Positions 10,201-63,165 of a DNA stretch of 64,000 nucleotides are shown here, piece after piece (the first letter of the stretch is position 1; each line of letters opens with the position of its first letter). Made by a program: the position numbers and the translations under genes. The notes beneath the pieces are model-generated. The model did not search any database. It was given only the letters and a program-made list of their open reading frames with translations, and was not told where the DNA came from. Source of the stretch: an uncultured Chitinophagales bacterium (lineage in GTDB: Bacteria; Bacteroidota; Ignavibacteria; UBA10030; UBA6906); assembly GCA_964444145.1 (NCBI GenBank), contig CAYUFU010000002.1, positions 38,722-102,721 of the forward strand. The letters are read 5' to 3'.

Positions 10201-11004
10201 CCCCGAAATAATTTCTTGGAGCGTGCGCTCACGTTCAATCCCAATGGGATCTTGAATGGTGCAGTGAATCTTGCGGTTGCGGGGAATTACGTTTATGTTT
10301 GCTGCGACCGCGGCGTCGTCATCGTCAGCATCGCAGATCCGATGAAGCCACGCGTTGCCGCCGAGATTCCGGCGCCTGCAATCACGAAGCCGAAAGCGAT
10401 TGCCATTCAATTCCGCTACGCGTTCGTCGTTGATGACCAAGGTGTGAAGGTGATTGACTTGACGTGGATGGATCAGCCGAAGCTCGTGAAGAGCGCCGTG
10501 GTTCCGCTGCAAGATGCGAATGATGTTTACGTTGCGCGAACGTACGCGTACGTTGCAGCCGGCGCTCAAGGGCTGGCGATTATTGACGTTGAAAATCCAG
10601 AAGCGCCGAGGCTTGAAAAGTTGTTCACAGCGGACGGCGCTATCACTGATGCGCAAGGAGTGAAAGTCGCCTCGACCAACGCGAGCCTGTTCGCGTACGT
10701 TGCCGATGGGAAAAATGGTTTGCGTGTCATTCAGCTCACGTCGCCGAAAACGCCCGGCTATTTAGGCTTCAGTCCGAAGCCCGTGCCGCAATTGATCGCG
10801 ACGATGCCGATGCGCGGCAGAGCGCTTGCTGTCTCGAAAGGGATGGATCGCGACCGCGCGGTGGACGAAAGCGGCAATCAGGTCAGCGTGTTCGGCAGGC
10901 TCGGCTCGCGCCCGTTCACGCACGATGAAATGCGGCAGATGTATTTGAAAGAGGGAAAGTTGTGGACTGTGACGGATGATGGGAGTGTTTCTCTCAAGAA
11001 ATGA
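7291..11004 (+). CDS. Decahaem c-type cytochrome fused to a C-terminal LVIVD-repeat beta-propeller (1237 aa)
   Basis: Ten CXXCH motifs in the first ~770 aa: CITCH, CIDCH, CGPCH, CTGCH, CMSCH, CVDCH x2, CQACH, CFGCH, CTDCH. The C-terminal ~450 aa consist of LVIVD-type repeats (YLYAACGEDGFRVYDVANVDN, YAYITDRYEGLILVDVMNL, YVYVCCDRGVVIVSIADPMKP, YAFVVDDQGVKVIDLTWMDQP, YAYVAAGAQGLAIIDVENPEAP, FAYVADGKNGLRVIQLTSPKTP). The N-terminus MNSFLLRAIITCVIIECL is hydrophobic (signal/anchor). Confidence 0.85.
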   Translation: MNSFLLRAIITCVIIECLRDTMIGQDSFINQTQADADRKSKGCITCHGGIEPMHKSSAVKLGCIDCHGGNPNATIADLAHVQPRFPDRWKTSANPPRTYTLLNEEYPEFVQFVNPGDLRVADKACGPCHNTTSDPIVRNVQKSLMTTSALLWGGAAYNNGIVSTKNYILGESYSWDGKPQKINTVPVPSAEDMKNKGVLPFVVPLPRWEITQPPDNFRSFERGGKVPRINPSEIGIPNPFEEPGRPDNKLSDRGTGTQLRISSPVLNIHKTRLNDPHLSFMGTNDNPGDYRSSGCTGCHVVYANDRSNFNAGPYAVFGNRGQSKTADTTISKRESGHPIKHQFTRAIPSSQCMSCHMHQPNAFVNTYLGYQMWDYETDAELMYPKQQKYPSNAEAFAMLARNPEEAVLRGNWSDQEFLANVSSLNPQLAHSQFSDYHGHGWVFRAVFKRDRKGNLLDKDGKVIPDNAPFKFDGVVPIEGVTPKTMSAASQSAQKAVHLKDIHLEKGMHCVDCHFKQDAHGDGKLKGEFHNAVEIQCVDCHGTMSARATLKTSGVAAPAGGTDLTQTFTPFGERRFRKTATSIRQRSTLVDTLSWEILQTVDSHTSGAAGYNKKAEAAHLMLKDGTIGKPNSPEEMFAHSYKKMECQACHTSWITNCFGCHLPQQANWKKQMNHYEGELSRNWTTYNPQVLRDDAYMLCLTGTTKGSKITTARSSSALVLSSVNANREQIYIQQAPISSPGHSSQAFNPHFSHAVRATETKQCTDCHVSSKNDNNAWMAQLLLQGTNFVNFIGKYAYVAAGDGGLEAVQVTEQDEPQAVIGSYLHSIAYPDYYKAHLDNRKQLRTSYHHSGSALSVQLRGEYLYAACGEDGFRVYDVANVDNKGFSERIVTSPVSPFGQDTHVKTRFATAVALPTNMPIDTRRRYRPENQEQAVEYNGKQLNLHPSYSYAYITDRYEGLILVDVMNLVDGDPRNNFLERALTFNPNGILNGAVNLAVAGNYVYVCCDRGVVIVSIADPMKPRVAAEIPAPAITKPKAIAIQFRYAFVVDDQGVKVIDLTWMDQPKLVKSAVVPLQDANDVYVARTYAYVAAGAQGLAIIDVENPEAPRLEKLFTADGAITDAQGVKVASTNASLFAYVADGKNGLRVIQLTSPKTPGYLGFSPKPVPQLIATMPMRGRALAVSKGMDRDRAVDESGNQVSVFGRLGSRPFTHDEMRQMYLKEGKLWTVTDDGSVSLKK

Positions 11005-11048
11005 AAAGCAATATCGAATATCGAACAAGGAATGTTGAATAACGAAGT
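11005..11048 (+). repeat. Cassette terminal repeat, copy A (AAAGCAATATCGAATATCGAACAAGGAATGTTGAATAACGAAGTG), directly after the cytochrome stop codon
   Basis: Shares GCAATATCGAA...CAAGGAATG...CGAAGTG blocks with copy B (11112-11146, same orientation) and with the inverted copy C (11577-11620). Confidence 0.6.
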
Positions 11049-11111
11049 GAGAGCGCAACGGCTGTGCTTGTTAGTTCATGACCTCCTTATCCAAAGCTCT
11101 GTAAGGAGATG

Positions 11112-11146
11112 AAAAACAATATCGAATATTGAACAAGGAATGTCGG
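11112..11146 (+). repeat. Cassette repeat, copy B (AAAAACAATATCGAATATTGAACAAGGAATGTCGGA)
   Basis: Direct repeat of copy A, 107 bp downstream. Overlaps the TTG-initiated 5' end of ORF 11129..11566. Confidence 0.55.
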
Positions 11147-11155
11147 ATTTTTCAA

Positions 11156-11566
11156 ATGAGGACGGTGATGGATTCGAGACAGAAGCGACAGTTTGATCTC
11201 GAAGAGCGGCTCATTGATTTTTCCTGCATGATCATTGACATCGTCGAGGCGCTCCCCGATACGAAAGTAGGCAATCATGTAGCGGGACAGATTCTGCGGT
11301 CTGGAACTTCACCTGCGCCGAATTATGCCGAAGCGACGAGCGCGGAATCGCGACAGGACTTCATTCACAAGATGAAAGTTTCGCTCAAGGAGTTTCGTGA
11401 GACGAACGTGTGGCTCAAAGTCATAAAGCGAAGAGCCCTTATCAAGCCTTTGGAAAAAATGGAGATTGCGCTGACCGAATGCCGCGAACTCATTTCGATT
11501 TTCGTAACGAGCATCGCGACAGCGAAACGAAATCTGAGGACAATCCCGAGGGCAAGTTCCAAATGA
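11156..11566 (+). CDS. Four-helix-bundle protein (TIGR02436-like, the family encoded inside 23S rRNA intervening sequences)
   Basis: MRTVMDSRQKRQFDLEERLIDFSCMIIDIVEALPDTKVGNHVAGQILRSGTSPAPNYAEATSAES...KMKVSLKEFRETNVWLKVIKR matches the conserved layout of this family. A paralogue lies at 17150-17590. ORF-track start 11129 is TTG; ATG at 11156 preferred. Confidence 0.7.
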   Translation: MRTVMDSRQKRQFDLEERLIDFSCMIIDIVEALPDTKVGNHVAGQILRSGTSPAPNYAEATSAESRQDFIHKMKVSLKEFRETNVWLKVIKRRALIKPLEKMEIALTECRELISIFVTSIATAKRNLRTIPRASSK

Positions 11567-12588
11567 AGTTCACCGGCACTTCGATATTCAATATTCGTCA
11601 TTCCTTGTTCGATATTGCTCTTATCCTTTTTGCGTTGTGGGGCGATGCTTTTGCACAAGGAAAATACCAAACGCTTGGTCCTTCCGGCTGCGGCATCGGT
11701 CAGGACAAGTGCCACGCGACCGAAAACGGACAGATGATCAAGCAGCACAAGAACTCCGCAACAAGTATTGCCGATGGAGAAAATTCACAAAAGTACGCGG
11801 ACGCGCTCGGCGTGAAAGAGTTTCTCCAAAGCCCCCAGTGCATGAATTGCCATGGAACGATTATTTCCGGCAAAGAAGGGAAGGAAGTCGAAGAAGGGGT
11901 GAGTTGCGAGAGTTGTCATGGCGCGGGAAGCGGCTACAAAGATCCGCACTCCGAAGGCCCGAAAGGTAGTGAAGGACAGCCTCGTCCTGGCTACACAAAA
12001 AGCCTCGCGCTGGGACTTGCCGATTTGAAGAAGCCGGAAGAGATAGCAAAAGCATGCGTGCGTTGTCACTACACGACGGATCAAAGACTTATCAGCGCAG
12101 GCCATCCCGATGGTGCCAAGTTTGCCTACAAGTCGAAAATGAAGGATGTAGCGGAGCACTGGAGGTACCGCGACAAAAAGAATGTTCCCGAAGGAGCGGT
12201 ATTCAAAGCAGCGATGGATCGTCGGGCGCCGGGCGCGAAATTCTCTCAGACGCCCAAGCCGGTTGCCCAGCAGGCTCCTGCGCAGCCACCGGTAAAAAGT
12301 CCAGCGCCGACTCCCCAAAAGCCGACTCCGCAAAGTGTTGACGTCACTGCGCCGCCGTTGCAGAAGCAGAACATCGGCGATCAGCCCGCGCCAACGCCGC
12401 GCGTGCGTAAGCCACCACCACCGCCTACACCTGTTGCCGCCGATCGCGACGCTGATCCCCCGCCGACTCCGGCCGAACTGAAAGATCTGCCGCCGTTTCC
12501 GGCGATCACCGAGAGCACGCGCGTTGATCGCATGCTGTTGTTGCTGAAAAAAAGGTTGGAGCTACTCTACACGAAGACAAAAAACTGA
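11563..12588 (+). CDS. Small exported c-type cytochrome (3 canonical CXXCH plus one CX6CH-like site) with a Pro-rich C-terminal tail
   Basis: Signal peptide MKFTGTSIFNIRHSLFDIALILFALWGDAFAQG. Haem motifs CMNCH, CESCH, CVRCH, plus CGIGQDKCH. Tail PKPVAQQAPAQPPVKSPAPTPQKPTPQ...KPPPPPTP. ORF-track start 11410 overlaps the four-helix-bundle gene in another frame and is rejected. ATG 11563 yields the signal peptide. Confidence 0.75.
   Translation: MKFTGTSIFNIRHSLFDIALILFALWGDAFAQGKYQTLGPSGCGIGQDKCHATENGQMIKQHKNSATSIADGENSQKYADALGVKEFLQSPQCMNCHGTIISGKEGKEVEEGVSCESCHGAGSGYKDPHSEGPKGSEGQPRPGYTKSLALGLADLKKPEEIAKACVRCHYTTDQRLISAGHPDGAKFAYKSKMKDVAEHWRYRDKKNVPEGAVFKAAMDRRAPGAKFSQTPKPVAQQAPAQPPVKSPAPTPQKPTPQSVDVTAPPLQKQNIGDQPAPTPRVRKPPPPPTPVAADRDADPPPTPAELKDLPPFPAITESTRVDRMLLLLKKRLELLYTKTKN
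11577..11620 (-). repeat. Cassette terminal repeat, copy C (inverted relative to A/B); lies inside the signal-peptide coding region of the 11563 cytochrome
   Basis: Reverse complement GAGCAATATCGAACAAGGAATGACGAATATTGAATATCGAAGTG matches copy A at both ends. Confidence 0.6.
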
Positions 12589-12590
12589 GA

Positions 12591-12619
12591 ACCACGGATT
12601 ACACGGATTTACACCGATT
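12591..12619 (+). repeat. Left inverted repeat (ACCACGGATTACACGGATTTACACCGATT) of a second small cassette
   Basis: Imperfect inverse partner CAATCCGTGCAATTCCGTGAAATCCGTGGTT at 12786-12816. Confidence 0.5.
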
Positions 12620-12625
12620 AGGTTT

Positions 12626-12712
12626 ATGGAAGAAGAAAAGCAAGAGTCGAAATTGCTTTATGAGGATCTGACCTATCAAATCATTGGCGCGGCGATGGAG
12701 GTCTCCGAGTAG
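12626..12712 (+). pseudogene. Truncated GxxExxY-family gene fragment (28 codons then TAG)
   Basis: MEEEKQESKLLYEDLTYQIIGAAMEVSE* matches the conserved N-terminus (LTxKIIGAAIEVH) of GxxExxY proteins, another family typical of 23S rRNA IVS. No continuation in any frame. Confidence 0.5.
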
Positions 12713-12785
12713 GATTGCTTCTGAATTTCGGGACGCTCAGTCTTGAATACAAAAGAAGAATTCTGTAAAGAGAAATTCCTAAAAA

Positions 12786-12816
12786 CAATCCGTGCAATTC
12801 CGTGAAATCCGTGGTT
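12786..12816 (-). repeat. Right inverted repeat of the GxxExxY-remnant cassette
   Basis: See 12591-12619. Confidence 0.5.
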
Positions 12817-15299: not shown

Positions 15300-15411
15300 C
15301 GTGGATTGATGGATTGATGGATTAATGGATTGATGGATTAATGGATTGATGACCAGGACCAAACCCTTCGATCCATTGATCCAACAATCCAACAATCCAA
15401 TAAGCCAGGAA
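15300..15411. repeat. Tandem GGATTGAT/GGATTAAT octamers (x6) followed by an inverse-type arm (ATCCATTGATCCAACAATCCAACAATCCAATAA); gene-less copy of the element at 17043-17635
   Basis: Directly visible: GTGGATTGATGGATTGATGGATTAATGGATTGATGGATTAATGGATTGATG ... CCAACAATCCAACAATCCAATAA. Confidence 0.7.
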
Positions 15412-15434: not shown

Positions 15435-17051
15435 ATGCCAAACTCAAAAGACGAAAACAGAACCAAAGGCACCTTCAGCGACGTGCGCATGCCCGTCGCG
15501 AGAACATACATTAGACCGCTCTCGCGCAAGCTGATGATGACTCTCGGCGGCATTGTTTGTGGAGTCGTTGTTGCCTACTATGCCGTTGACTCCCTGCTGT
15601 TGAAGAATACATTCATTGCGAGCGGTCCGGTGGCGGCGAGCCACGCCAACTTCGAGAGCGAATGCGCGAAGTGCCATACGCCGTTCCGCGGCGTGAACGA
15701 TAGCAGGTGCACGACCTGTCATGAGAAGACGAACGACAAGTTGGGGGTATATTCCTTCGCCGCGCATTACCTGTACCGATCGGCAATGCCTGCGCGTATT
15801 GCCGATGCAAAGCAGAAACACGGCGCAGATGAGAAAATGTGCGCTGCTTGTCACCCCGATCATAAGGGACGCAACGCAAGCATCACCGTCGTGACAGATG
15901 CGAAATGCGCCACGTGCCACTACTCCTCGTTCAATGACGATCATCCTGAGTTTGAGTTTGCACGCACGAATGCCGTGGACGATTCGACCTTGAAGATGAC
16001 CCATGTAAAGCACACAAAAGAAGTATTGAAGGAACTTAATACGGCGAACATCGAAACCGCCTGTCTCTATTGCCACAATCCGATGGCGGATGGGAAAGCC
16101 TTCAAGCCGCTCGACTTCGACATGCACTGCGGCGATTGCCACCTCACGGCGAATACGGCATCCGCGTCGCTGACGATTCGCGACCCAAGCAATCCCAGTG
16201 CTCTCGGCGTCGAGACGTTGGAGATGATTCAACAACGAAGAGGTCCCGGCACGCGTTGGGCATTCTATACGAACCCAAACGAATTTACTATTACCGGCTC
16301 GCGCGTACAGAAAGCTCCCGTCTATCATCGCGATCCGTGGATTCTTGAAAACCTCAAAAGGATTCGCTCGATGCTCTACACGGAGGTCGGCCTCTCGGAT
16401 TTGTTGAATGCCGCAGGTGCCGGAGCGGAGAAGGGCAATCAGCAGTCGTATAACGAGGCGATTCAAACGCTCCGCGAGTATGTCACCGGCTTGCGCCCTC
16501 GTCCAGAAAAAGAAATTCAACAGGAGCTTACGACGATTGATTCCTTGTTGGATGTTGCGTCGCGCGTTGTGAATACGCCGGCAGTGACGCTCTCTGATTC
16601 GCTCTTTCGCATAACGGTGCGCATGGAAAACCCAAGCCTCACGGCGCAACAGAAGCAGGATATTTCGGATTTCGGCGAGAAGCTCGCGAAGCCGTGCCTC
16701 GAGTGTCATTACGTTGAGCGTGCGGCGATTCTTGGCGTGAAGGCGATCCAGCGAACGTTTTCGCGTGCCGAGTTCGATCATCGCGCGCATATTACGCAGC
16801 GCCGCTGCCTCGAATGCCATGACGTAATACCGATTGACGATGCGCTGTCGGACGATTCACTCGCAGTTACACGAGCCGCCGCGAAGATTCCGACGCTTGA
16901 TATCGCAGCGACACACAATATTCCGAAAAAAGAAAACTGCATCGAGTGTCATACAGCAGGCGCAGGGTCGAATGAATGCATCACATGCCACTTCATGCAT
17001 CCGAACAAAACGCAGCGCGGGAGTTTACAACTATTCGTTTCTAAGCCCTGA
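15435..17051 (+). CDS. Membrane-anchored decahaem c-type cytochrome
   Basis: N-terminal TM helix MMTLGGIVCGVVVAYYAV. Ten CXXCH motifs: CAKCH, CTTCH, CAACH, CATCH, CLYCH, CGDCH, CLECH x2, CIECH, CITCH. Confidence 0.85.
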   Translation: MPNSKDENRTKGTFSDVRMPVARTYIRPLSRKLMMTLGGIVCGVVVAYYAVDSLLLKNTFIASGPVAASHANFESECAKCHTPFRGVNDSRCTTCHEKTNDKLGVYSFAAHYLYRSAMPARIADAKQKHGADEKMCAACHPDHKGRNASITVVTDAKCATCHYSSFNDDHPEFEFARTNAVDDSTLKMTHVKHTKEVLKELNTANIETACLYCHNPMADGKAFKPLDFDMHCGDCHLTANTASASLTIRDPSNPSALGVETLEMIQQRRGPGTRWAFYTNPNEFTITGSRVQKAPVYHRDPWILENLKRIRSMLYTEVGLSDLLNAAGAGAEKGNQQSYNEAIQTLREYVTGLRPRPEKEIQQELTTIDSLLDVASRVVNTPAVTLSDSLFRITVRMENPSLTAQQKQDISDFGEKLAKPCLECHYVERAAILGVKAIQRTFSRAEFDHRAHITQRRCLECHDVIPIDDALSDDSLAVTRAAAKIPTLDIAATHNIPKKENCIECHTAGAGSNECITCHFMHPNKTQRGSLQLFVSKP

Positions 17052-17130
17052 GCGGAGCGAAGGGCATTGGCTGCTTGGTGGATTGGTGGATTGATGGATT
17101 GATGGATTGATGGATTGCGGATGCGCGGGT
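17043..17130 (+). repeat. Left arm of the GGATTGAT element: AAGCCCTGAGCGGAGCGAAGGGCAT module plus (GGATTGGT/GGATTGAT)x5; starts inside the last codons of the cytochrome gene
   Basis: The same 5' module TAAGCCCTGATCGGAGCGAAGGGTAT recurs at 55409. Confidence 0.65.
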
Positions 17131-17149
17131 CAACTATTGAGGAGAAGTT

Positions 17150-17590
17150 ATGGAATACACAAAACTCAGAAACAAGAATCGCGGCTACATGAAGTTGGAT
17201 GTGTGGCAAAAGGGAATCGTGCTGTTCCAGCTCGTTTGGAATCTCATCACGAAAGCAAAAGTAGATTTTAAGCTGCGGTCACAAATCGCCAATGCTGCTC
17301 AAGGGATTTCATCCAACATCGCGGAAGGCTATAGCAGACGCTCGGTAAAGGAGTATCTTCAATTCTTGTATGTTTCTCTCGGCTGTCTTTCTGAAACGCT
17401 CACGAGGTCTGTGGGGCTAAAAGTGATAAACCAAATCTCTGAAGACGAGTTCAATCAGATTGACGTTTTGCATTATGAAATTGAAAACAAACTGTGGCGA
17501 TTGGTCGAAAGTTTAGGGCGGAAGAAAGACGATGGCACGTGGAGCGATCGCGTCTCAGAGGATTTATCGGAATACCCAACAATCCAATAA
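17150..17590 (+). CDS. Four-helix-bundle protein (TIGR02436-like), second copy
   Basis: MKLDVWQKGIVLFQLVWNLITKAKVDFKLRSQIANAAQGISSNIAEGYSRRSVKEYLQFLYVSLGCLSE carries the family signatures LDVWQK, NIAEGY and EYLxFLxxSxGSLxE. Alternative start at M14 (17189). The C-terminal codons overlap the right repeat arm. Confidence 0.75.
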   Translation: MEYTKLRNKNRGYMKLDVWQKGIVLFQLVWNLITKAKVDFKLRSQIANAAQGISSNIAEGYSRRSVKEYLQFLYVSLGCLSETLTRSVGLKVINQISEDEFNQIDVLHYEIENKLWRLVESLGRKKDDGTWSDRVSEDLSEYPTIQ

Positions 17591-17625
17591 TCCATTTATC
17601 CATGAATCCATTGATTCATTATTCC
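17575..17625. repeat. Right (inverse-type) arm of the GGATTGAT element (CCAACAATCCAATAATCCATTTATCCATGAATCCATTGATTCA)
   Basis: Complement-type CAATCC units mirror the GGATTG units of the left arm. Confidence 0.6.
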
Positions 17626-17635
17626 TCCTAGTGTT

Positions 17636-18538
17636 ATGAAAGCGCGTCTCTTTTGTAAAACAGGCCAGCTCGCCGGCGCGAGCTTCGAGATTGGGACGGA
17701 CGCGATGATCGGCAAGAGTGCCGAATGCGTGATTCAACTCTACCCGCAGTTGATCTCGTCGCGCCATGCGCGCATTTATTTTGACGAAAAAGCGCAGAGC
17801 TATTTTCTCGAAGACCTCAATAGCCGTAATGGAACGAAATTAGACGGCACTCGTGTCAAAACAAAGGAGCGGCTCGGCTCGCTGCACGTGATTACGCTCG
17901 CGAACACGTTCGATTTTCTTTTCCAAGTGATTGACGAGAGCCAACAGATCGCAGCGCCGAAGGGTGAGCCTGCAAAACCAGCGACGCTCAAAACAGAGTT
18001 GGGGAGCGGCTACGTGCCACAGCAAACGCCGCCCCCCGCAATGCAGCAGGTTGCACCGAAAACCGTAATGAGCGACGAGCCATTGGCGAACGCTCCGCTC
18101 GCGTCTCACTCGCGGGAGAAAACGATTTTCGAGAACGATGCAATTCCCGTCTTTCGACAACCGAAGGAACAGGAGAAACGAGCCGACGCGAAGATTCCAG
18201 AAGAGAGTATCCCCACCCCCATGCCTCGTCCGCAGACGCCCGCAGCAAAACCTATCACCTTTGCAGTGGTAGTGGACTCGACGGGAAAATCCTACGAACT
18301 CAACGAAGGCTCGACCATTGTCGGCAGAGACGCATCGTGCGGCATCTGCATCGAACATGGCTCGGTCTCGCGCAAGCACGCGGAGTTGCTGCTCAAAGGC
18401 GGCAAGTTGACCGTCAAAGATTTGGGGAGCAAGAATCATACATTCATCAACGATCAGAAAATCAAAGTTGAGACGGAAATCCACGAGGGCGTAACGCTGA
18501 CCTTTGGCGTGGTGAGGGCGCGGGTGGTTAAGGCCTGA
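17636..18538 (+). CDS. Protein with two FHA domains separated by a Pro/Ala-rich linker
   Basis: FHA 1: IGKSAECVIQL...SSRHARIYFDEKAQSYFLEDLNSRNGTKLDG. FHA 2: TIVGRDASCGICIEHGSVSRKHAELLLKGGKLTVKDLGSKNHTFINDQKI. Both carry the G-R...S-R/H...N-G-T/hydrophobic signature. Confidence 0.8.
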   Translation: MKARLFCKTGQLAGASFEIGTDAMIGKSAECVIQLYPQLISSRHARIYFDEKAQSYFLEDLNSRNGTKLDGTRVKTKERLGSLHVITLANTFDFLFQVIDESQQIAAPKGEPAKPATLKTELGSGYVPQQTPPPAMQQVAPKTVMSDEPLANAPLASHSREKTIFENDAIPVFRQPKEQEKRADAKIPEESIPTPMPRPQTPAAKPITFAVVVDSTGKSYELNEGSTIVGRDASCGICIEHGSVSRKHAELLLKGGKLTVKDLGSKNHTFINDQKIKVETEIHEGVTLTFGVVRARVVKA

Positions 18539-38549: not shown

Positions 38550-39123
38550 CGAACGACGAACCGCAAAAGTGCGCGACGTGCTGCGCAAGCGTCAACCTGA
38601 CTTGACTGTCGTGCTGGAAAACATTCACGATCCGCACAATGTCAGCGCGGTGCTTCGCTCATGCGATGCGGTTGGCGTGATGAAAGTGCAGTTGCTGTAC
38701 AATGTGGAGAAGTTTCCGAAGATTGGGAAGAAAAGTTCGTCGAGCGCAAACAAGTGGCTGACGTGGAACAAATTCAAGACGGTGGATGAATGCTACGCCG
38801 CGCTGCGCGCAGAGGGCTTTTCTATTTACGCGACGCACCTCAGCAGCGAGGCGGTCTCAGTGTACGAGCTCGACATGACGAGACGCGTCGCGCTTGTGTT
38901 CGGCAATGAGCATCGCGGCGTCAGCGATGAAGCTGCCGCGCAGGCAGACGGCAATTTCATGATTCCGATGGTGGGAATGATCCAGAGCCTTAATGTTTCG
39001 GTGGCGTGCGCGGTGAGCCTTTACGAAGCGATGCGGCAGCGGCTCGCCTGCGGCGCGTACGATGCACCAAAGTTGACGTCGCGCGAGTTGCAGCGATTGT
39101 TTGATGAGTGGATAGAAATGTGA
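38539..39123 (+). CDS. trmH: SpoU/TrmH-family RNA 2'-O-methyltransferase
   Basis: VVLENIHDPHNVSAVLRSCDAVGV, LVFGNEHRGVS, MIPMVGMIQSLNVSVACAVSLYEA. Confidence 0.8.
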   Translation: MARSERRTAKVRDVLRKRQPDLTVVLENIHDPHNVSAVLRSCDAVGVMKVQLLYNVEKFPKIGKKSSSSANKWLTWNKFKTVDECYAALRAEGFSIYATHLSSEAVSVYELDMTRRVALVFGNEHRGVSDEAAAQADGNFMIPMVGMIQSLNVSVACAVSLYEAMRQRLACGAYDAPKLTSRELQRLFDEWIEM

Positions 39124-51711: not shown

Positions 51712-51755
51712 CCGGCGCGGGGTGAACGTACACGAGGCTGTATTCATCTAATCGT

Positions 51756-51788
51756 CCACTGAGTGGATGATTATCATCCACTCAGGTG
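51756..51788. repeat. ~33-bp palindrome CCACTGAGTGGATGATTATCATCCACTCAGGTG, 10 bp beyond the 3' end of the AAA ATPase gene
   Basis: Core GGATGA-TTA-TCATCC is a perfect palindrome, extended by CCACTGAGT/(A)CTCAGGTG. A related copy lies at 53076-53107. Confidence 0.6.
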
Positions 51789-51798
51789 TGACACTTGT

Positions 51799-53040
51799 CT
51801 ACGGCTGCAACGTCCACAATGCGTGCAGCGGCATCGCGTGCATGTTCGATGCAAAGGGGATAACCCGGTTCCCTCCATGCAACACAATCCCGCGTACGAA
51901 TCGCTTGCCAACACTCTCCGCAAACATGTTCAGAGATGCGAAGGTCGAGCCGTTTACCGTCGAGCTCAGTTTGACTTCAACGGCAACGAGCGAGCCGTTT
52001 GAATGCTCGAGCACAAAATCAATCTCGCTTCCTGTCTGTGAACGGAAGAAAAAGAGTTGGGCAGTTCCTTTGCTGACCGTAAGTTGTTTGAGTAACTCTG
52101 TCGCGACAAACACCTCGACGAGATGACCAAGCAAGGTGCTGTCGTCTGCGAGCTGCTGATTGTTCACATTGAGCAGATGTGCCGCCAATCCCGAGTCCAT
52201 CAAATACACCTTTGGCGTTTTGATGAGCCGCTTCCCGATGTTGCCATACCACGGTGGGAGAAGATGCACAAGATATGTTGTTTGCAACAAGGTCATATAC
52301 CGTTTGAGCGACGTCTGCGGAATGCCGACACTCGCAGAAAGGTCTGCAAAGTTAAGAAGCCCGCCTGCGCGTGATGCGAGCAATGCGAGGAGTCGCGGCA
52401 TTGCCGTGAGCCCCTCGATGTTTGCCAACTCGCGTACATCGCGTTGGAGCATGGTGGTGACGTACGATCTGAACCATGCTGGTCGCCTGTCACGTGCAAT
52501 GTCCGTTACAACCTCGGGAAATCCGCCTGTGAGAATTTTCTCGATGAGCTGTTTTCGTGTAAGCGCGCTGTGGTCGGCTAGCCTGAGGTTGCGGGAGAAG
52601 ACCGCGTCAATAAAGGTCGAGTCGCTCTTCTCAATCTCGCGCTGTGAAAGTGGCAAGAGCGAAAGAACTTCCATGCGTCCGACAAGTGCATCGGCAAGAC
52701 GGGGCACGAGCAAGATATTCGCAGAGCCTGTCAACAAAAATCTTCCCGCAGTCCGCTTTCGATCCACAGCGGATTTGATTGCAAGAAAAACCTCCGGCGC
52801 GCGTTGCACCTCGTCAATGGCGACGTTGCCCTCCAACCCATCAATGAATCCATCGGGGTTGGCTTTAGCAAGGGATTGAACTGCCGCGTCATCAAACGTG
52901 ATGTAGCGTCTGGGATGACGTTGCGATGCCAGCCATTGAACGAGCGTGCTCTTGCCGCTTTGCCGCGGTCCGTTCAACAGAACGACGGGTCGGTCCTTGA
53001 GCGCACGAAGCACGAACGATGCAAGATGTCGGGGGATCAT
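51799..53040 (-). CDS. AAA+ ATPase with C-terminal DUF4143-type domain
   Basis: Start at ATG 53040: MIPRHLASFVLRALKDRPVVLLNGPRQSGKSTLVQ (Walker A). The rest shows the conserved layout of the ATPase-DUF4143 family. Confidence 0.75.
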   Translation of the reverse strand: MIPRHLASFVLRALKDRPVVLLNGPRQSGKSTLVQWLASQRHPRRYITFDDAAVQSLAKANPDGFIDGLEGNVAIDEVQRAPEVFLAIKSAVDRKRTAGRFLLTGSANILLVPRLADALVGRMEVLSLLPLSQREIEKSDSTFIDAVFSRNLRLADHSALTRKQLIEKILTGGFPEVVTDIARDRRPAWFRSYVTTMLQRDVRELANIEGLTAMPRLLALLASRAGGLLNFADLSASVGIPQTSLKRYMTLLQTTYLVHLLPPWYGNIGKRLIKTPKVYLMDSGLAAHLLNVNNQQLADDSTLLGHLVEVFVATELLKQLTVSKGTAQLFFFRSQTGSEIDFVLEHSNGSLVAVEVKLSSTVNGSTFASLNMFAESVGKRFVRGIVLHGGNRVIPFASNMHAMPLHALWTLQP

Positions 53041-53075
53041 GGGAATAGGATACGAAATGAGTGGCTGATAATCAA

Positions 53076-53107
53076 CCACTCAATGGACGATTATCATCCA
53101 CTCAGAA
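53076..53107. repeat. Degenerate second copy of the palindrome (CCACTCAATGGACGATTATCATCCACTCAG) just upstream of the AAA ATPase start
   Basis: Shares GATTATCATCCACTCAG with 51756-51788. A further GAGTGG...CCACTC palindrome lies at 53059-53082. Confidence 0.55.
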
Positions 53108-54925: not shown

Positions 54926-55411
54926 ATGGAACTCAGACTTGTGAGCATCGAAAAACCCGACGATATGAACTTCATTCTCGGCCATTCCCATTTCATCAAA
55001 ACGGTCGAAGATCTGTATGAGGCGATCGTTCAGACGAATCCCTCAATGAAGTTCGGGATTGCTTTTTGCGAAGCCTCGGGTCCTGCGCTCGTGCGTTTTA
55101 TCGGGAACGATGAGAAGTTGATTGCGCTCGCAAAGACCAACGCAATGAACATCGCAGCGGGCCACACGTTTATCATCTTCCTGGAACGTGGTTTCCCGAT
55201 CAACATTCTCAACACAATCAAGAATGTTGCAGAAGTATGTCGTATCTTTTGCGCGACCGCCAACCCAACGCAAGTCATCGTCGCGGAAACCGACCAAGGC
55301 AGGGGGATCCTCGGCGTGATTGACGGCGTCGCGACGAAAGGAATCGAAACGGATGCAGACATTGTGAAACGAAAAGAGTTTTTGAGGAAAATCGGCTACA
55401 AACTCTCTTAA
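54926..55411 (+). CDS. Conserved ~160-aa protein, resembles the Pfam 'adenosine-specific kinase' (PF04008) family
   Basis: Recognition from memory of the overall layout (MELRLVSIEKPDDMNFILGHSHFIKTVEDLYEAI...). Not verified. Confidence 0.45.
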   Translation: MELRLVSIEKPDDMNFILGHSHFIKTVEDLYEAIVQTNPSMKFGIAFCEASGPALVRFIGNDEKLIALAKTNAMNIAAGHTFIIFLERGFPINILNTIKNVAEVCRIFCATANPTQVIVAETDQGRGILGVIDGVATKGIETDADIVKRKEFLRKIGYKLS

Positions 55412-55566
55412 GCCCTGATCGGAGCGAAGGGTATGAGCCGATCGACTAGTGAAGTGATGAAGTCGTGGATAAATGGATTGATGGAGAAGTGGAGAAACGA
55501 CATTTCAGTTCGCTCGTCAACTATCCAGCAATCCAATTACCCAATTCTCAGAGTAATGTGGACCTT
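55409..55566. repeat. Gene-less copy of the GGATTGAT element: TAAGCCCTGATCGGAGCGAAGGGTAT module, GGATAAATGGATTGATGG, then inverse arm ATCCAGCAATCCAATTACCCAATTC
   Basis: The 5' module is near-identical to 17043-17068. Begins at the TAA of the upstream gene. Confidence 0.6.
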
Positions 55567-61299: not shown

Positions 61300-61368
61300 G
61301 GGGAACGTAGGGCATCTCATCTGCAAGAGTTCATAGCATTGATAATCAACAGGAATGCAAAAGGAAAA

Positions 61369-62493
61369 ATGAAAAAGGCAAAACAATTCGGACTCCTTTT
61401 CATTTTTCATTTTTCATTTTTCCTTTCCTTCTCCCAAACCAACCCCAACTTCAACGTCCGCCTCACTCTCAACCACGAATCCGCCGAACGCGCAATCGAA
61501 TTGTACGAAGGCAAATGGGGGCGTGGTCGCGACATCGTGCCGTTGAAGGGAAGCCAAATCGCACTTGCAACCACTGCCGACCTTGCGCGCAGAAGGCTCT
61601 CGCCATCGTATCTCGAGGAAAGCTTAGACGGAATCAAATTCGGACAAGTGAGTAACGACGACATTTTTTTGTTGAAGGATGCGAGACAGAACGTCGCCGC
61701 GCTGAAGGAACTGCTCGACTACATCAAGCGACGCAACTTTGCACAGCGAGTGGCAAGCACCGTTGAACAGCTGTTCCCAGGCGATGCAAGAATCTCGACG
61801 ACGATTCCGCTCTTCTTCGTCGCGTTCGGTCATCAGAATATTGATGCGTATGTTCGCCGTGTTGTCTGGTACGATAACATTCCGCATTTCGTTGGCGAAG
61901 GAGAAGGCGAATTGACCATTGTCGTGAATCTCGCGAAAGCCATTCGCTACGGTCGTACTGTTGACGAACGATTCATCGGTGTGCTGAGCGTTGTTGCGCA
62001 CGAAGTCTTTCATGCGGCATTCGGCGTATACAAAGATGAATCACCGGCATGGCGCGAGTATTACTCAACGCGTACTTCCTATCTGGACGACCTGCTCGAC
62101 TTGACTCAGAACGAAGGCATCGCCCATTACCTGACGTTTGAGCAGCGCACAGGGGGCTATCTTCCGCAGGATTGGAATGAGAGGGTTGCCGCGTCGTTCG
62201 CAGAGTTCAATCGGAGCGCGGAAGAGCTTCTCTCATCGCGCATATCACCTCAACGCGCTCATCTCCTCATCAGCACATCGAACACCTCCGAGTATTGGAA
62301 GAGCTACGGCGCAATCACGGGCATGTTCATCGCACGCACGCTTGACGCGCAGTTGGGGCGTAAGGCGCTCACGGAAACTGTTGCCACTGGCGTGGATGAA
62401 TTTTATTTACAGTACATTTCTCTTGCAGAACGAGACGCTACCCTGCCGAAACTCTCCGAGCAAATCGCGCGACGTATTTCGAGCCGACGATAG
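61369..62493 (+). CDS. Secreted hypothetical protein with an HEXXH zinc-metallopeptidase motif
   Basis: Signal peptide MKKAKQFGLLFIFHFSFFLSFSQ. LSVVAHEVFHAAFG (HEXXH). No further family assignment. Confidence 0.55.
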   Translation: MKKAKQFGLLFIFHFSFFLSFSQTNPNFNVRLTLNHESAERAIELYEGKWGRGRDIVPLKGSQIALATTADLARRRLSPSYLEESLDGIKFGQVSNDDIFLLKDARQNVAALKELLDYIKRRNFAQRVASTVEQLFPGDARISTTIPLFFVAFGHQNIDAYVRRVVWYDNIPHFVGEGEGELTIVVNLAKAIRYGRTVDERFIGVLSVVAHEVFHAAFGVYKDESPAWREYYSTRTSYLDDLLDLTQNEGIAHYLTFEQRTGGYLPQDWNERVAASFAEFNRSAEELLSSRISPQRAHLLISTSNTSEYWKSYGAITGMFIARTLDAQLGRKALTETVATGVDEFYLQYISLAERDATLPKLSEQIARRISSRR

Positions 62494-62881: not shown

Positions 62882-63165
62882 AAATCAAGTGTCAACTTTT
62901 CCCTGAAATCCGATTTAGCCTCACGCAAAGTCGCAAAGCCGCAAAGTTGTTTTGAGAAATTTCTGCAAAGGAGAATTCACCGAATTGGTGAAATGTTTTG
63001 AGAACTGCTTCACCAACATGTTCTTTTTCTCTTTCATTCTTCGCGCCTTAGTGTCTTTGCGTGAGATTTCAATATCGGAATTCAGGTTTTCCTTGCTCTT
63101 CTTTTGAAATCTCTATAACTTCTATCCAAAGAAAATTACGACTGTTCGTTTCGAAAGGAGTCTTC

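Follow-up and report, generated by a model that had tools for sequence, protein, structure and literature searches.

A candidate intervening-sequence-like palindromic cassette carrying a four-helix-bundle gene at a cytochrome-FHA operon junction

Intervening sequences (IVSs) of 23S rRNA genes that carry an S23p open reading frame (ORF) are known in Coxiella burnetii and Leptospira (PMC4990558). The Coxiella IVS has a 28-bp terminal stem with the S23p ORF in its loop, and RNase III cuts inside the stem; upstream of this ORF there are two or three tandem heptamers, in strain-dependent number, and the ORF itself has been reported to be decaying and probably untranslated (PMC4990558). XCC0516 has been reported to be a homopentamer (PMC4990558), and Avd binds structured RNA adjoining its gene (bioRxiv 10.1101/2023.10.23.563531). 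Both the anatomy of IVSs and the relation between the PF05635 family and Avd are already published. In this study we describe a 596-nt insertion in a 64,000-nt stretch of DNA (hereafter the window; positions 38,722 to 102,721 of contig CAYUFU010000002.1, assembly GCA_964444145.1) from an uncultured bacterium of the Ignavibacteria. The insertion, which we call the window cassette, lies between a multihaem cytochrome gene and an FHA-domain gene, and carries a PF05635 gene (the cargo) between two arms made of tandem octamers. Genes of this family outside rRNA were already known, the name of the protein being generic; we know of no function assigned to the PF05635 / S23p / Avd-like family outside diversity-generating retroelements (DGRs) in 30 years. 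In the searchable literature, which is thin on subscription journals, the 23S rRNA IVS is the only genomic context discussed for PF05635 outside DGRs, and we found there no palindromic PF05635 cassettes at operon junctions with subfamily-specific co-varying arms, empty or decayed derivatives and allele exchange.

The window cassette is probably an IVS-type palindromic mini-cassette, promoterless, co-transcribed with its host operon and inserted between two translationally coupled genes. It resembles the 23S rRNA IVS in size (~430–600 nt), in inverted-repeat termini that form an enclosing stem (here in the predicted fold), in its single ORF of the PF05635 family, in the short, strain-variable tandem repeats on the 5' side (heptamers in Coxiella, octamers here), in its presumed dependence on host transcription, and in a sporadic, horizontally influenced distribution with ORF-less forms. 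It differs in that it occupies an intercistronic junction of a protein operon and not helix 9, 25 or 45, in that both arms are made of tandem octamers, and in that its ORF is strongly constrained and has a good ribosome-binding site, whereas the Coxiella ORF is decaying. Since every anatomical trait of the Coxiella IVS except the rRNA location is present in the window cassette, we infer co-transcription, a stem in the sense RNA and processing by RNase III. By this analogy the cassette would be transcribed as part of the cytochrome-FHA operon, and both arms would pair in the transcript into a long imperfect stem of ~45 bp around the ORF. This stem would be a substrate of RNase III, as in the 23S rRNA IVSs, and cleavage would separate the flanking cistrons and free the ORF segment. 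Array length would drift through replication slippage, and the likeness of the arms would be kept via selection for pairing, intramolecular template switching, or both. The 23S rRNA IVS could then be reframed as one habitat of a broader cassette family.

That this DNA is an insertion was established by an empty-site comparison, in which we used the genomic context of cytochrome orthologues 79%, 76% and 66% identical (loci L207, L208/L209 and L210; the L207 orthologue is 76% identical). At the empty junctions of L210, L208 and L209 the cytochrome ends in ...GSLQLFVE(K/R)K and a stop codon, and the FHA gene starts 1–2 nt further on. The window is collinear with these relatives through ...CTATTCGTT (17039) and then continues with TCTAAGCCCTGA, giving ...LQLFV-SKP and a stop: the cytochrome gene (an ORF of 538 aa, TGA at 17049–17051) has its final three codons and stop exchanged by the insert, from E-K-K-stop to S-K-P-stop. 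As collinearity ends at 17039, 596 nt replace 13–14 nt of host sequence. The hairpin module at the left end belongs to the inserted DNA and gives the cytochrome gene its new stop. An element starting inside the last codons of the cytochrome gene had been proposed in an earlier reading of the letters alone (hereafter the sequence-only reading); the comparison agrees with this and refines the boundaries (Table 1). The same junction in L207 (3398–3553) holds a 156-nt cargo-less hairpin with another type of arm (flavour) in the opposite orientation, and there the cytochrome stop codon is intact. In the window strain the cassette is fixed in all contigs, no presence/absence polymorphism being seen, and contigs that are otherwise identical (L001–L006) differ in having 4 or 5 units in their left array. 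Three metagenome contigs of this strain (L003, L006 and L342) terminate in or beside octamer arrays. For annotation these arrays are a concern, as they fragment metagenome assemblies and can shift gene ends by supplying a stop codon or C-terminal codons.

The features of the cassette, together with the related elements of the window, are collected in Table 1. The left array has a period of 8, with 5.4 copies at 97% matches and the consensus (GGATTGRT)x5 (Tandem Repeats Finder, TRF). The right array, delimited by TRF at 17576–17625 and of the AATCC type, has the same period, with 4.4–5.6 copies at 72–81% matches. The two arrays are complementary, the best pair covering 31 nt at 84% and a longer one 43 nt at 74%, and the window has 13 occurrences of the two-unit array pattern, for an expectation of 0.46. 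In both the minimum-free-energy and the centroid structure of the predicted RNA fold, the cassette is closed by a stem of its two arms, ~45 bp long and interrupted by single-nucleotide bulges. The right arm encodes the final four codons of the cargo (P-T-I-Q) and its stop, homologues terminating in ...EYNP, and ends 4 nt upstream of the ATG (17636) of the FHA gene, which encodes 300 aa. These data bear out the sequence-only reading, which had placed a TIGR02436-like gene between two octamer arms, a hairpin module (AAGCCCTGAGCGGAGCGAAGGGCAT at 17043) before the left arm and the C-terminal codons of the gene in the right arm. A promoter and terminator scan detected neither a sigma-70-like promoter nor an intrinsic terminator on the + strand within the window cassette, and Rfam gave no match at E ≤ 1 over 16900–17750.

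Table 1. Coordinates of the window cassette, its parts and the related elements of the window.
Feature	Positions	Strand	Description	Location or basis
Insertion, refined boundaries	17040-17635		596 nt	Between multihaem cytochrome gene and FHA gene
Left end with hairpin module	17040-17067	+	Stem GCCCT/AGGGC, loop GAGCGGAGCGA	Empty-site comparison, module search, fold
Left arm	17075-17117	+	Tandem octamers: GGATTGGT, GGATTGAT x3, GGATTG	TRF, repeat search
Spacer	17118-17149	+	32 nt; Shine-Dalgarno-like GAGGAG at 17139-17144, 5 nt before ATG
Cargo gene	17150-17590	+	146-aa four-helix-bundle protein, TIGR02436/PF05635 (S23p / Avd-like)
Right arm	17576-17631	+	Degenerate complementary octamers: CAATCC AATAATCC ATTTATCC ATGAATCC ATTGATTC ATTATTCC
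Sister cassette, other flavour	11004-11622	+	Arms AATATCGAATATCGAACAAGGAATG...; 138-aa four-helix-bundle gene 11150-11566, different subfamily
Third flavour, decayed cargo	12590-12816	+	Arms CACGGATT / AATCCGTG; GxxExxY-type remnants
Cargo-less hairpin, same flavour	15302-15400		(TGGATTRA)x6, 28-nt loop, (ATCCAACA)x3	Spacer upstream of cytochrome gene
Degenerate cargo-less copy	55410-55545		Module with 2 mismatches, weak GGAT/ATCC arms

The cargo matches TIGR02436 at 6.5e-19 (68.2 bits, cut-off 24) and PF05635 at 1.2e-19 (70.9 bits, cut-off 33.8). An AlphaFold2 monomer model predicts four long helices (pLDDT 89.7); in Foldseek searches with this model 2GSC and 2RLD were the best matches, the Avd structures 4DWL and 8UB7 being weaker. 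XCC0516 (2GSC) and BT_0352 (2RLD) are thus the nearest described proteins in both sequence (the subfamily profile matches 2GSC at 5e-14) and predicted fold (TM-score 0.88–0.93 to the target); the two entries hold five chains each, are assigned to the 'S23 ribosomal protein' family and come without function or genomic-context analysis. Avd shares with the cargo the Pfam superfamily, the four-helix bundle of the model (TM-score ~0.8, target-normalised) and a mildly basic character (the isoelectric point is 8.6 for the cargo and 9.7 for the protein of the sister cassette), but its identity to the cargo is ~12–14%, and the cassette has no reverse transcriptase in the locus gene tables and no template/variable repeats. 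The ratio of non-synonymous to synonymous divergence (dN/dS) has a median of 0.10 over 200 unsaturated subfamily pairs, and 49 of 52 genes are intact over the coordinates used; judged by these codon comparisons, the cargo protein is functional and under purifying selection. Two of its motifs, E-G-Y-x-R and L-x-E-T, are conserved. More than 4800 proteins match one subfamily query, and a search of 5.8 billion proteins gave 74% identity for the next-best homologue; the nearest homologues with a label belong to MAGs (metagenome-assembled genomes) of Ignavibacteriae, Ignavibacteria or Bacteroidota. A defence or phage origin was also considered and rejected: the cargo has no match in PADLOC or PHROGs, and there is one weak relative in 2.9 million viral contigs.

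The same design recurs in other genomes. When 185,579 species genomes were scanned for the pattern of four GGATTRRT units, at least 120 stretches were returned, which, among the matches listed, come from Chlamydiota, Verrucomicrobiota, Bacteroidota, Chloroflexota, Acidobacteriota, Planctomycetota, Ignavibacteriae and others. An inverted partner was present within 1.5 kb of 35 of the 143 GGATTRRT arrays, against 2 in the reversed-sequence control; mostly, these are short-loop hairpins. The long-spaced pairs (L011, L047 and L102) all enclose a close homologue of the window cargo, paired arrays surround a shortened cargo in L121 and L060 (by an internal deletion in L121), and in all five loci the GGATT arm is 5' of the cargo. 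Among cultured organisms, Maribellus luteus XSD2 (L049), Flagellimonas beolgyonensis KCTC 23501 (L074) and Nonlabens (L060) have arrays or fragments of cassettes. A protein-based metagenome scan yielded 80 loci with homologues 48–70% identical, 73 of which could be evaluated for arms. Complementary arms are present in 55 of these 73 loci, compared with none of 73 in the control, nearly always with period 8 in both arms. As arm type and cargo recur together, in the long-spaced pairs as in these 55 loci, the arrays are not ordinary repeats without a partner or cargo. The arm unit, TGGA-K-T-R-R, forms a continuum of GGATT, GGAGT, GGATG, GGATA and GGAAT variants. The dominant fifth base is complementary between left and right units (TGGAT/ATCCA versus TGGAG/CTCCA) in 61 of 68 loci (T-A in 41, G-C in 19, A-T in 1), whereas 2000 shuffles gave a mean of 33 and a maximum of 46. 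The most frequent arm mismatch is a left A opposite a right C (66 cases), the left arm being richer in A at the variable positions than pairing needs. In operons of Ignavibacteria-like, Bacteroidota, Planctomycetota and other lineages, the stem-plus-ORF design is widespread among protein genes. The idea that copies might occur in rRNA operons was not borne out: none of ~210 loci has an rRNA location, the window holds one tRNA and no rRNA, and rRNA signature motifs are absent from 211 sources save one chance match, which an Rfam check rejected. At one locus, in a Candidatus Sulfotelmatobacter MAG (L031, 1597–1915), two Acido-Lenti-1 RNA motifs, inverted relative to each other (1675–1720 on the minus and 1870–1915 on the plus strand), come after a GGATT array; both attain the Rfam gathering score.

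Neighbours of the homologous loci were analysed with a longest-ORF heuristic. The cargo shares its strand with the gene downstream in 48 of 51 loci and with the gene upstream in 36 of 45. Median distances are 53 nt between the upstream stop and the start of the cargo, and 18 nt (quartiles 6–49) between the end of the right array and the next start codon. Given this orientation and spacing, the cassette occupies the entire spacer of a co-directional gene pair. It has its own ribosome-binding site and apparently no promoter. The host contexts are unrelated, including the cytochrome/FHA operon, kdsB/pyrG, an ABC transporter and NAD synthase/NUDIX. Many of the metagenome loci nevertheless share an operon site in related organisms, and there are 349 locus pairs with homologous flanking ORFs. 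One such conserved site reads HlyD, ABC ATPase, cassette, MacB/FtsX permease, and HtrA operons likewise keep cassettes across lineages. We also considered a 'start-stop conveyor', in which ATG-GAT-TGA units overlapping as TGATG would hand ribosomes on from unit to unit of the left arm; with TRA-TG at a frequency of 26% in left arms versus 35% in the reverse complement of right arms, the idea was rejected. As the left arm is rich in GGA, it might conceivably act as an array of CsrA-type binding sites.

At the conserved sites the synonymous divergence (pS) of cargo and flanks is discordant in both directions. The cargo is closer than its flanks in L171/L172 (cargo pS 0.010; flank pS 0.46 and 0.48) and in L139/L141 (0.10; 0.61 and 0.37), and more distant in L172/L186 (0.385; 0.154 and 0.156) and in L134/L143 (0.78; 0.38). 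L172 is a mosaic: its flanks are L186-like and its cassette L171-like, and the switch points are a few tens of nt outside the arms, inside conserved coding ends. This mosaic and the discordant pS values indicate that cassette alleles have been replaced horizontally between lineages at the same site, most simply by homologous recombination through the flanks. No near-identical cassette was found in a different context, closely similar cassettes always having homologous flanks. Recent transposition was rejected, as there is no near-identical copy elsewhere and no presence/absence polymorphism in the window strain.

Within the 64 kb of the window, ~8 paired-array hairpins of at least 5 flavours were found. 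The arms of the sister cassette at 11005, which are of the AATATCGAACAAGGAATG type, share nothing with those of the window cassette, as the sequence-only reading had claimed. The same reading had suggested several flavours carrying the same cargo: the flavours are real, but the cargo is the same at the superfamily level only, since both the 11150 and the 17150 proteins pass the TIGR02436/PF05635 models yet give no BLASTP alignment with each other, and the arms track the subfamily. Indeed, GGAATATCGAATATCGAACAAGGAATGTTGAAG arms and their complement are unchanged around 63%-identical subfamily-B homologues in the Planctomycetota-type loci L212 and L213, and a GGAATATCGAATATCGAACAAGGAATGTTGAAG arm variant is present in a Phycisphaerae MAG. 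As arms of the 11150 type recur with their own subfamily across phyla, a protein subfamily and its arms are co-inherited. On the downstream side of the 11005 cassette, a cytochrome c554-like gene overlaps the cargo stop by 4 nt (11563–11660), its signal-peptide-like N-terminus (MKFTGTSIFNIRHSLFDIALILFALWGDAFA) being encoded by the right arm of the cassette; the same arrangement is found in a 70%-identical orthologous locus (L211, 601–700). The element at 12590 retains N- and C-terminal remnants of its gene in two different frames, and the C-terminal peptide matches TIGR04256 weakly, below the cut-off (E = 0.0037).

Cargo-less forms accompany these cassettes. The hairpin at 15302–15400 has an RNA folding energy of -49.3 kcal/mol (z = -8.1), and the copy at 55410 is located between a gene end (55411) and the next start codon (~55567). 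The spacer upstream of the cytochrome gene holds four paired-array elements in four genomes: an element of the GGATTGAT type in the window, the module with GGATTGAT/GGAGTGAT arrays in L207, a TTCCAAA type in L210 and a AATATCGAACAAGGA type in L208/L209. Because the element differs from genome to genome, these junctions have been colonised repeatedly. Some loci in an ABC-transporter operon (L157, L158, L160 and L168) are three-armed, with the order GGAT array, AATCC array, ORF, AATCC array, so that a complete GGAT/AATCC hairpin stands 100 nt upstream of the cargo gene. The three arms permit alternative pairings, and the direct repeats around the ORF offer a plausible way of losing it. REP/BIME, Correia/NEMIS and ERIC elements are intergenic palindromes co-transcribed with operons, and Correia elements are cut by RNase III; the REP/BIME-type families are high-copy, near-identical and gene-less, and either have a transposase that is known or suspected (RAYT) or show a TA duplication. 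The two cargo-less hairpins of the window are like these elements, but the cassettes are low-copy, have tandem-octamer arms and carry, in their full form, a conserved gene.

The hairpin module AAGCCCTGAGCGGAGCGAAGGGCAT has a second copy in the window, with 2 mismatches, at 55410 (0 expected), and folds as a 5-bp hairpin. Its core CCTGAGCGRAGCGAAGG (17046–17062 and 55413–55429), with a conserved loop containing GCGAAGC, has no Rfam family; the count of the module proposed in the sequence-only reading found it also in more than 120 viral contigs, a lower bound, against ~14 expected by a rough estimate. Of 107 distinct instances, 86% have a Watson-Crick pair beside the fixed CCT/AGG stem, each of the four pair types being represented, and short tandem arrays lie within 80 nt of the module in 12% of instances versus 1.1% at control positions (L222–L341). 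In this lineage the module precedes a left array in three cases (17043 and 55410 in the window, and L207), and cassettes from other phyla lack it. We regard the module as a small hairpin element in its own right, associated in this lineage with the left end of the cassette.

Several results weigh against the IVS-type cassette as set out above. About 75% of the GGATTRRT arrays are solitary and lie in mixed contexts; with some three quarters having no detectable partner, an array by itself is therefore not diagnostic of a cassette, and the genome-wide array count foreseen in the sequence-only reading gave a divided answer, in that paired arrays with the same cargo recur while most arrays are unpaired. 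The folding energy of the whole cassette is unexceptional (z = -1.2), only the arm stem standing out. A wobble test for pairing at the RNA level lent no support to selection specific to the sense RNA: over 57 cassettes, G.U-type arm mismatches number 47 versus 74 of the A.C type, with no RNA-specific signal, and only 21 of 54 loci have a sense duplex of higher stability than the antisense one. The paired-arm RNA structure anticipated by the sequence-only reading thus stands as an energetically plausible closing stem, without specific support from the mismatch spectrum. Since the RNA-level test gave no support, the complementarity may equally be needed or maintained at the DNA level, for which hairpin or cruciform formation and template switching between the arms are possible routes. 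No target-site duplication was found at the one comparable filled/empty junction, a 3-nt GTT at most being common to both ends, and the cassette and the locus gene tables contain no mobility enzyme, a trans-acting transposase not having been searched for. Finally, same-site retention across large clades together with purifying selection fits a host-beneficial or domesticated gene equally well as a selfish element.

These points bear differently on the alternatives. A DNA transposon of the miniature inverted-repeat (MITE) or insertion-sequence (IS) kind would take the arrays as terminal inverted repeats and the cargo-less hairpins as non-autonomous derivatives, with no role for RNA pairing; the arrays would be bound either by a transposase encoded at another locus or by the four-helix-bundle pentamer together with a host enzyme. 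The inverted termini, the cargo-less and internally deleted derivatives, the discrete flavours common to several phyla, the repeated colonisation of one intergenic spacer, whose flavour differs among the four related genomes, and a mismatch spectrum that is not RNA-specific all speak for it; we nevertheless consider it quite unlikely in view of the missing target-site duplication and transposase, of cassettes that have no near-identical copies at other sites (the best other cargo homologue being the 74%-identical one), of the divergence of the window's three copies from one another and of the near absence of the cassette from viral contigs. It is hardly credible that there is no element at all and that an ordinary small gene happens to lie among simple-sequence repeats: solitary GGATTRRT arrays are indeed frequent in many genomes, but the empty sites of the relatives reveal an insertion, arms that co-vary in their cores accompany the gene in 55 of 73 loci against none of the controls, and the architecture is identical across phyla. 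As improbable is a DGR remnant whose Avd gene would be the cargo. Fold and Pfam family are in common with Avd (PMC10053308), yet the locus gene tables have no reverse-transcriptase (RVT) gene within 6–10 kb, the repeats are inverted octamer arrays and not a template/variable pair, and sequence and predicted fold are nearer to XCC0516 and BT_0352.

A domesticated regulatory module, in which the RNA or DNA structure of the arms would tune the coupling, stability or termination of the flanking genes and the protein would serve the host, for instance as an RNA-binding factor, the whole being immobile now or always, accounts for the same-site retention of cassettes in ABC-transporter and HtrA operons of many lineages, the strong purifying selection, the co-orientation with the downstream gene (94%) whose start codon the cassette abuts, the fixation in all window-strain contigs and the alternative pairings that three-armed loci allow. 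We rate it as rather doubtful because the host contexts are mutually unrelated, close relatives lack the cassette at the cytochrome-FHA junction, the phylogeny of the cassette conflicts with that of its flanks, and decayed and empty copies are common. The IVS-type cassette remains the interpretation that we prefer. More tentatively, and with no great confidence, we propose an undescribed minimal element class, in which an Avd-like pentamer would recognise its own flavour-specific flanking arrays, as RNA or DNA, and promote retention, copying or homing into intercistronic junctions without a transposase, recombinase or nuclease of a known family; the 23S IVS would then be a special case. The link between flavour and subfamily, the covariation of the arms, the purifying selection and the cassette-limited allele replacement are compatible with such self-recognition, and none of them proves it.

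Other repeats of the window are of different kinds. At 51749–53105, a minus-strand gene for a 426-aa ATPase (51799–53079) lies between 36-nt inverted repeats that are 92% complementary. The ATPase gives a match at 2.3e-162 to PDC-S01, a candidate defence family of PADLOC; the whole forms a single-gene inverted-repeat unit of a different kind. Further intergenic repeats comprise an A-rich heptamer hairpin (AATGAAAAAGG / TTTTCATTTTT) at 61354–61426, CGCAAAGT / CTTTGCG arms 92 nt apart at 62920–63065, and a solitary AAAAGGA array at 2142–2180.

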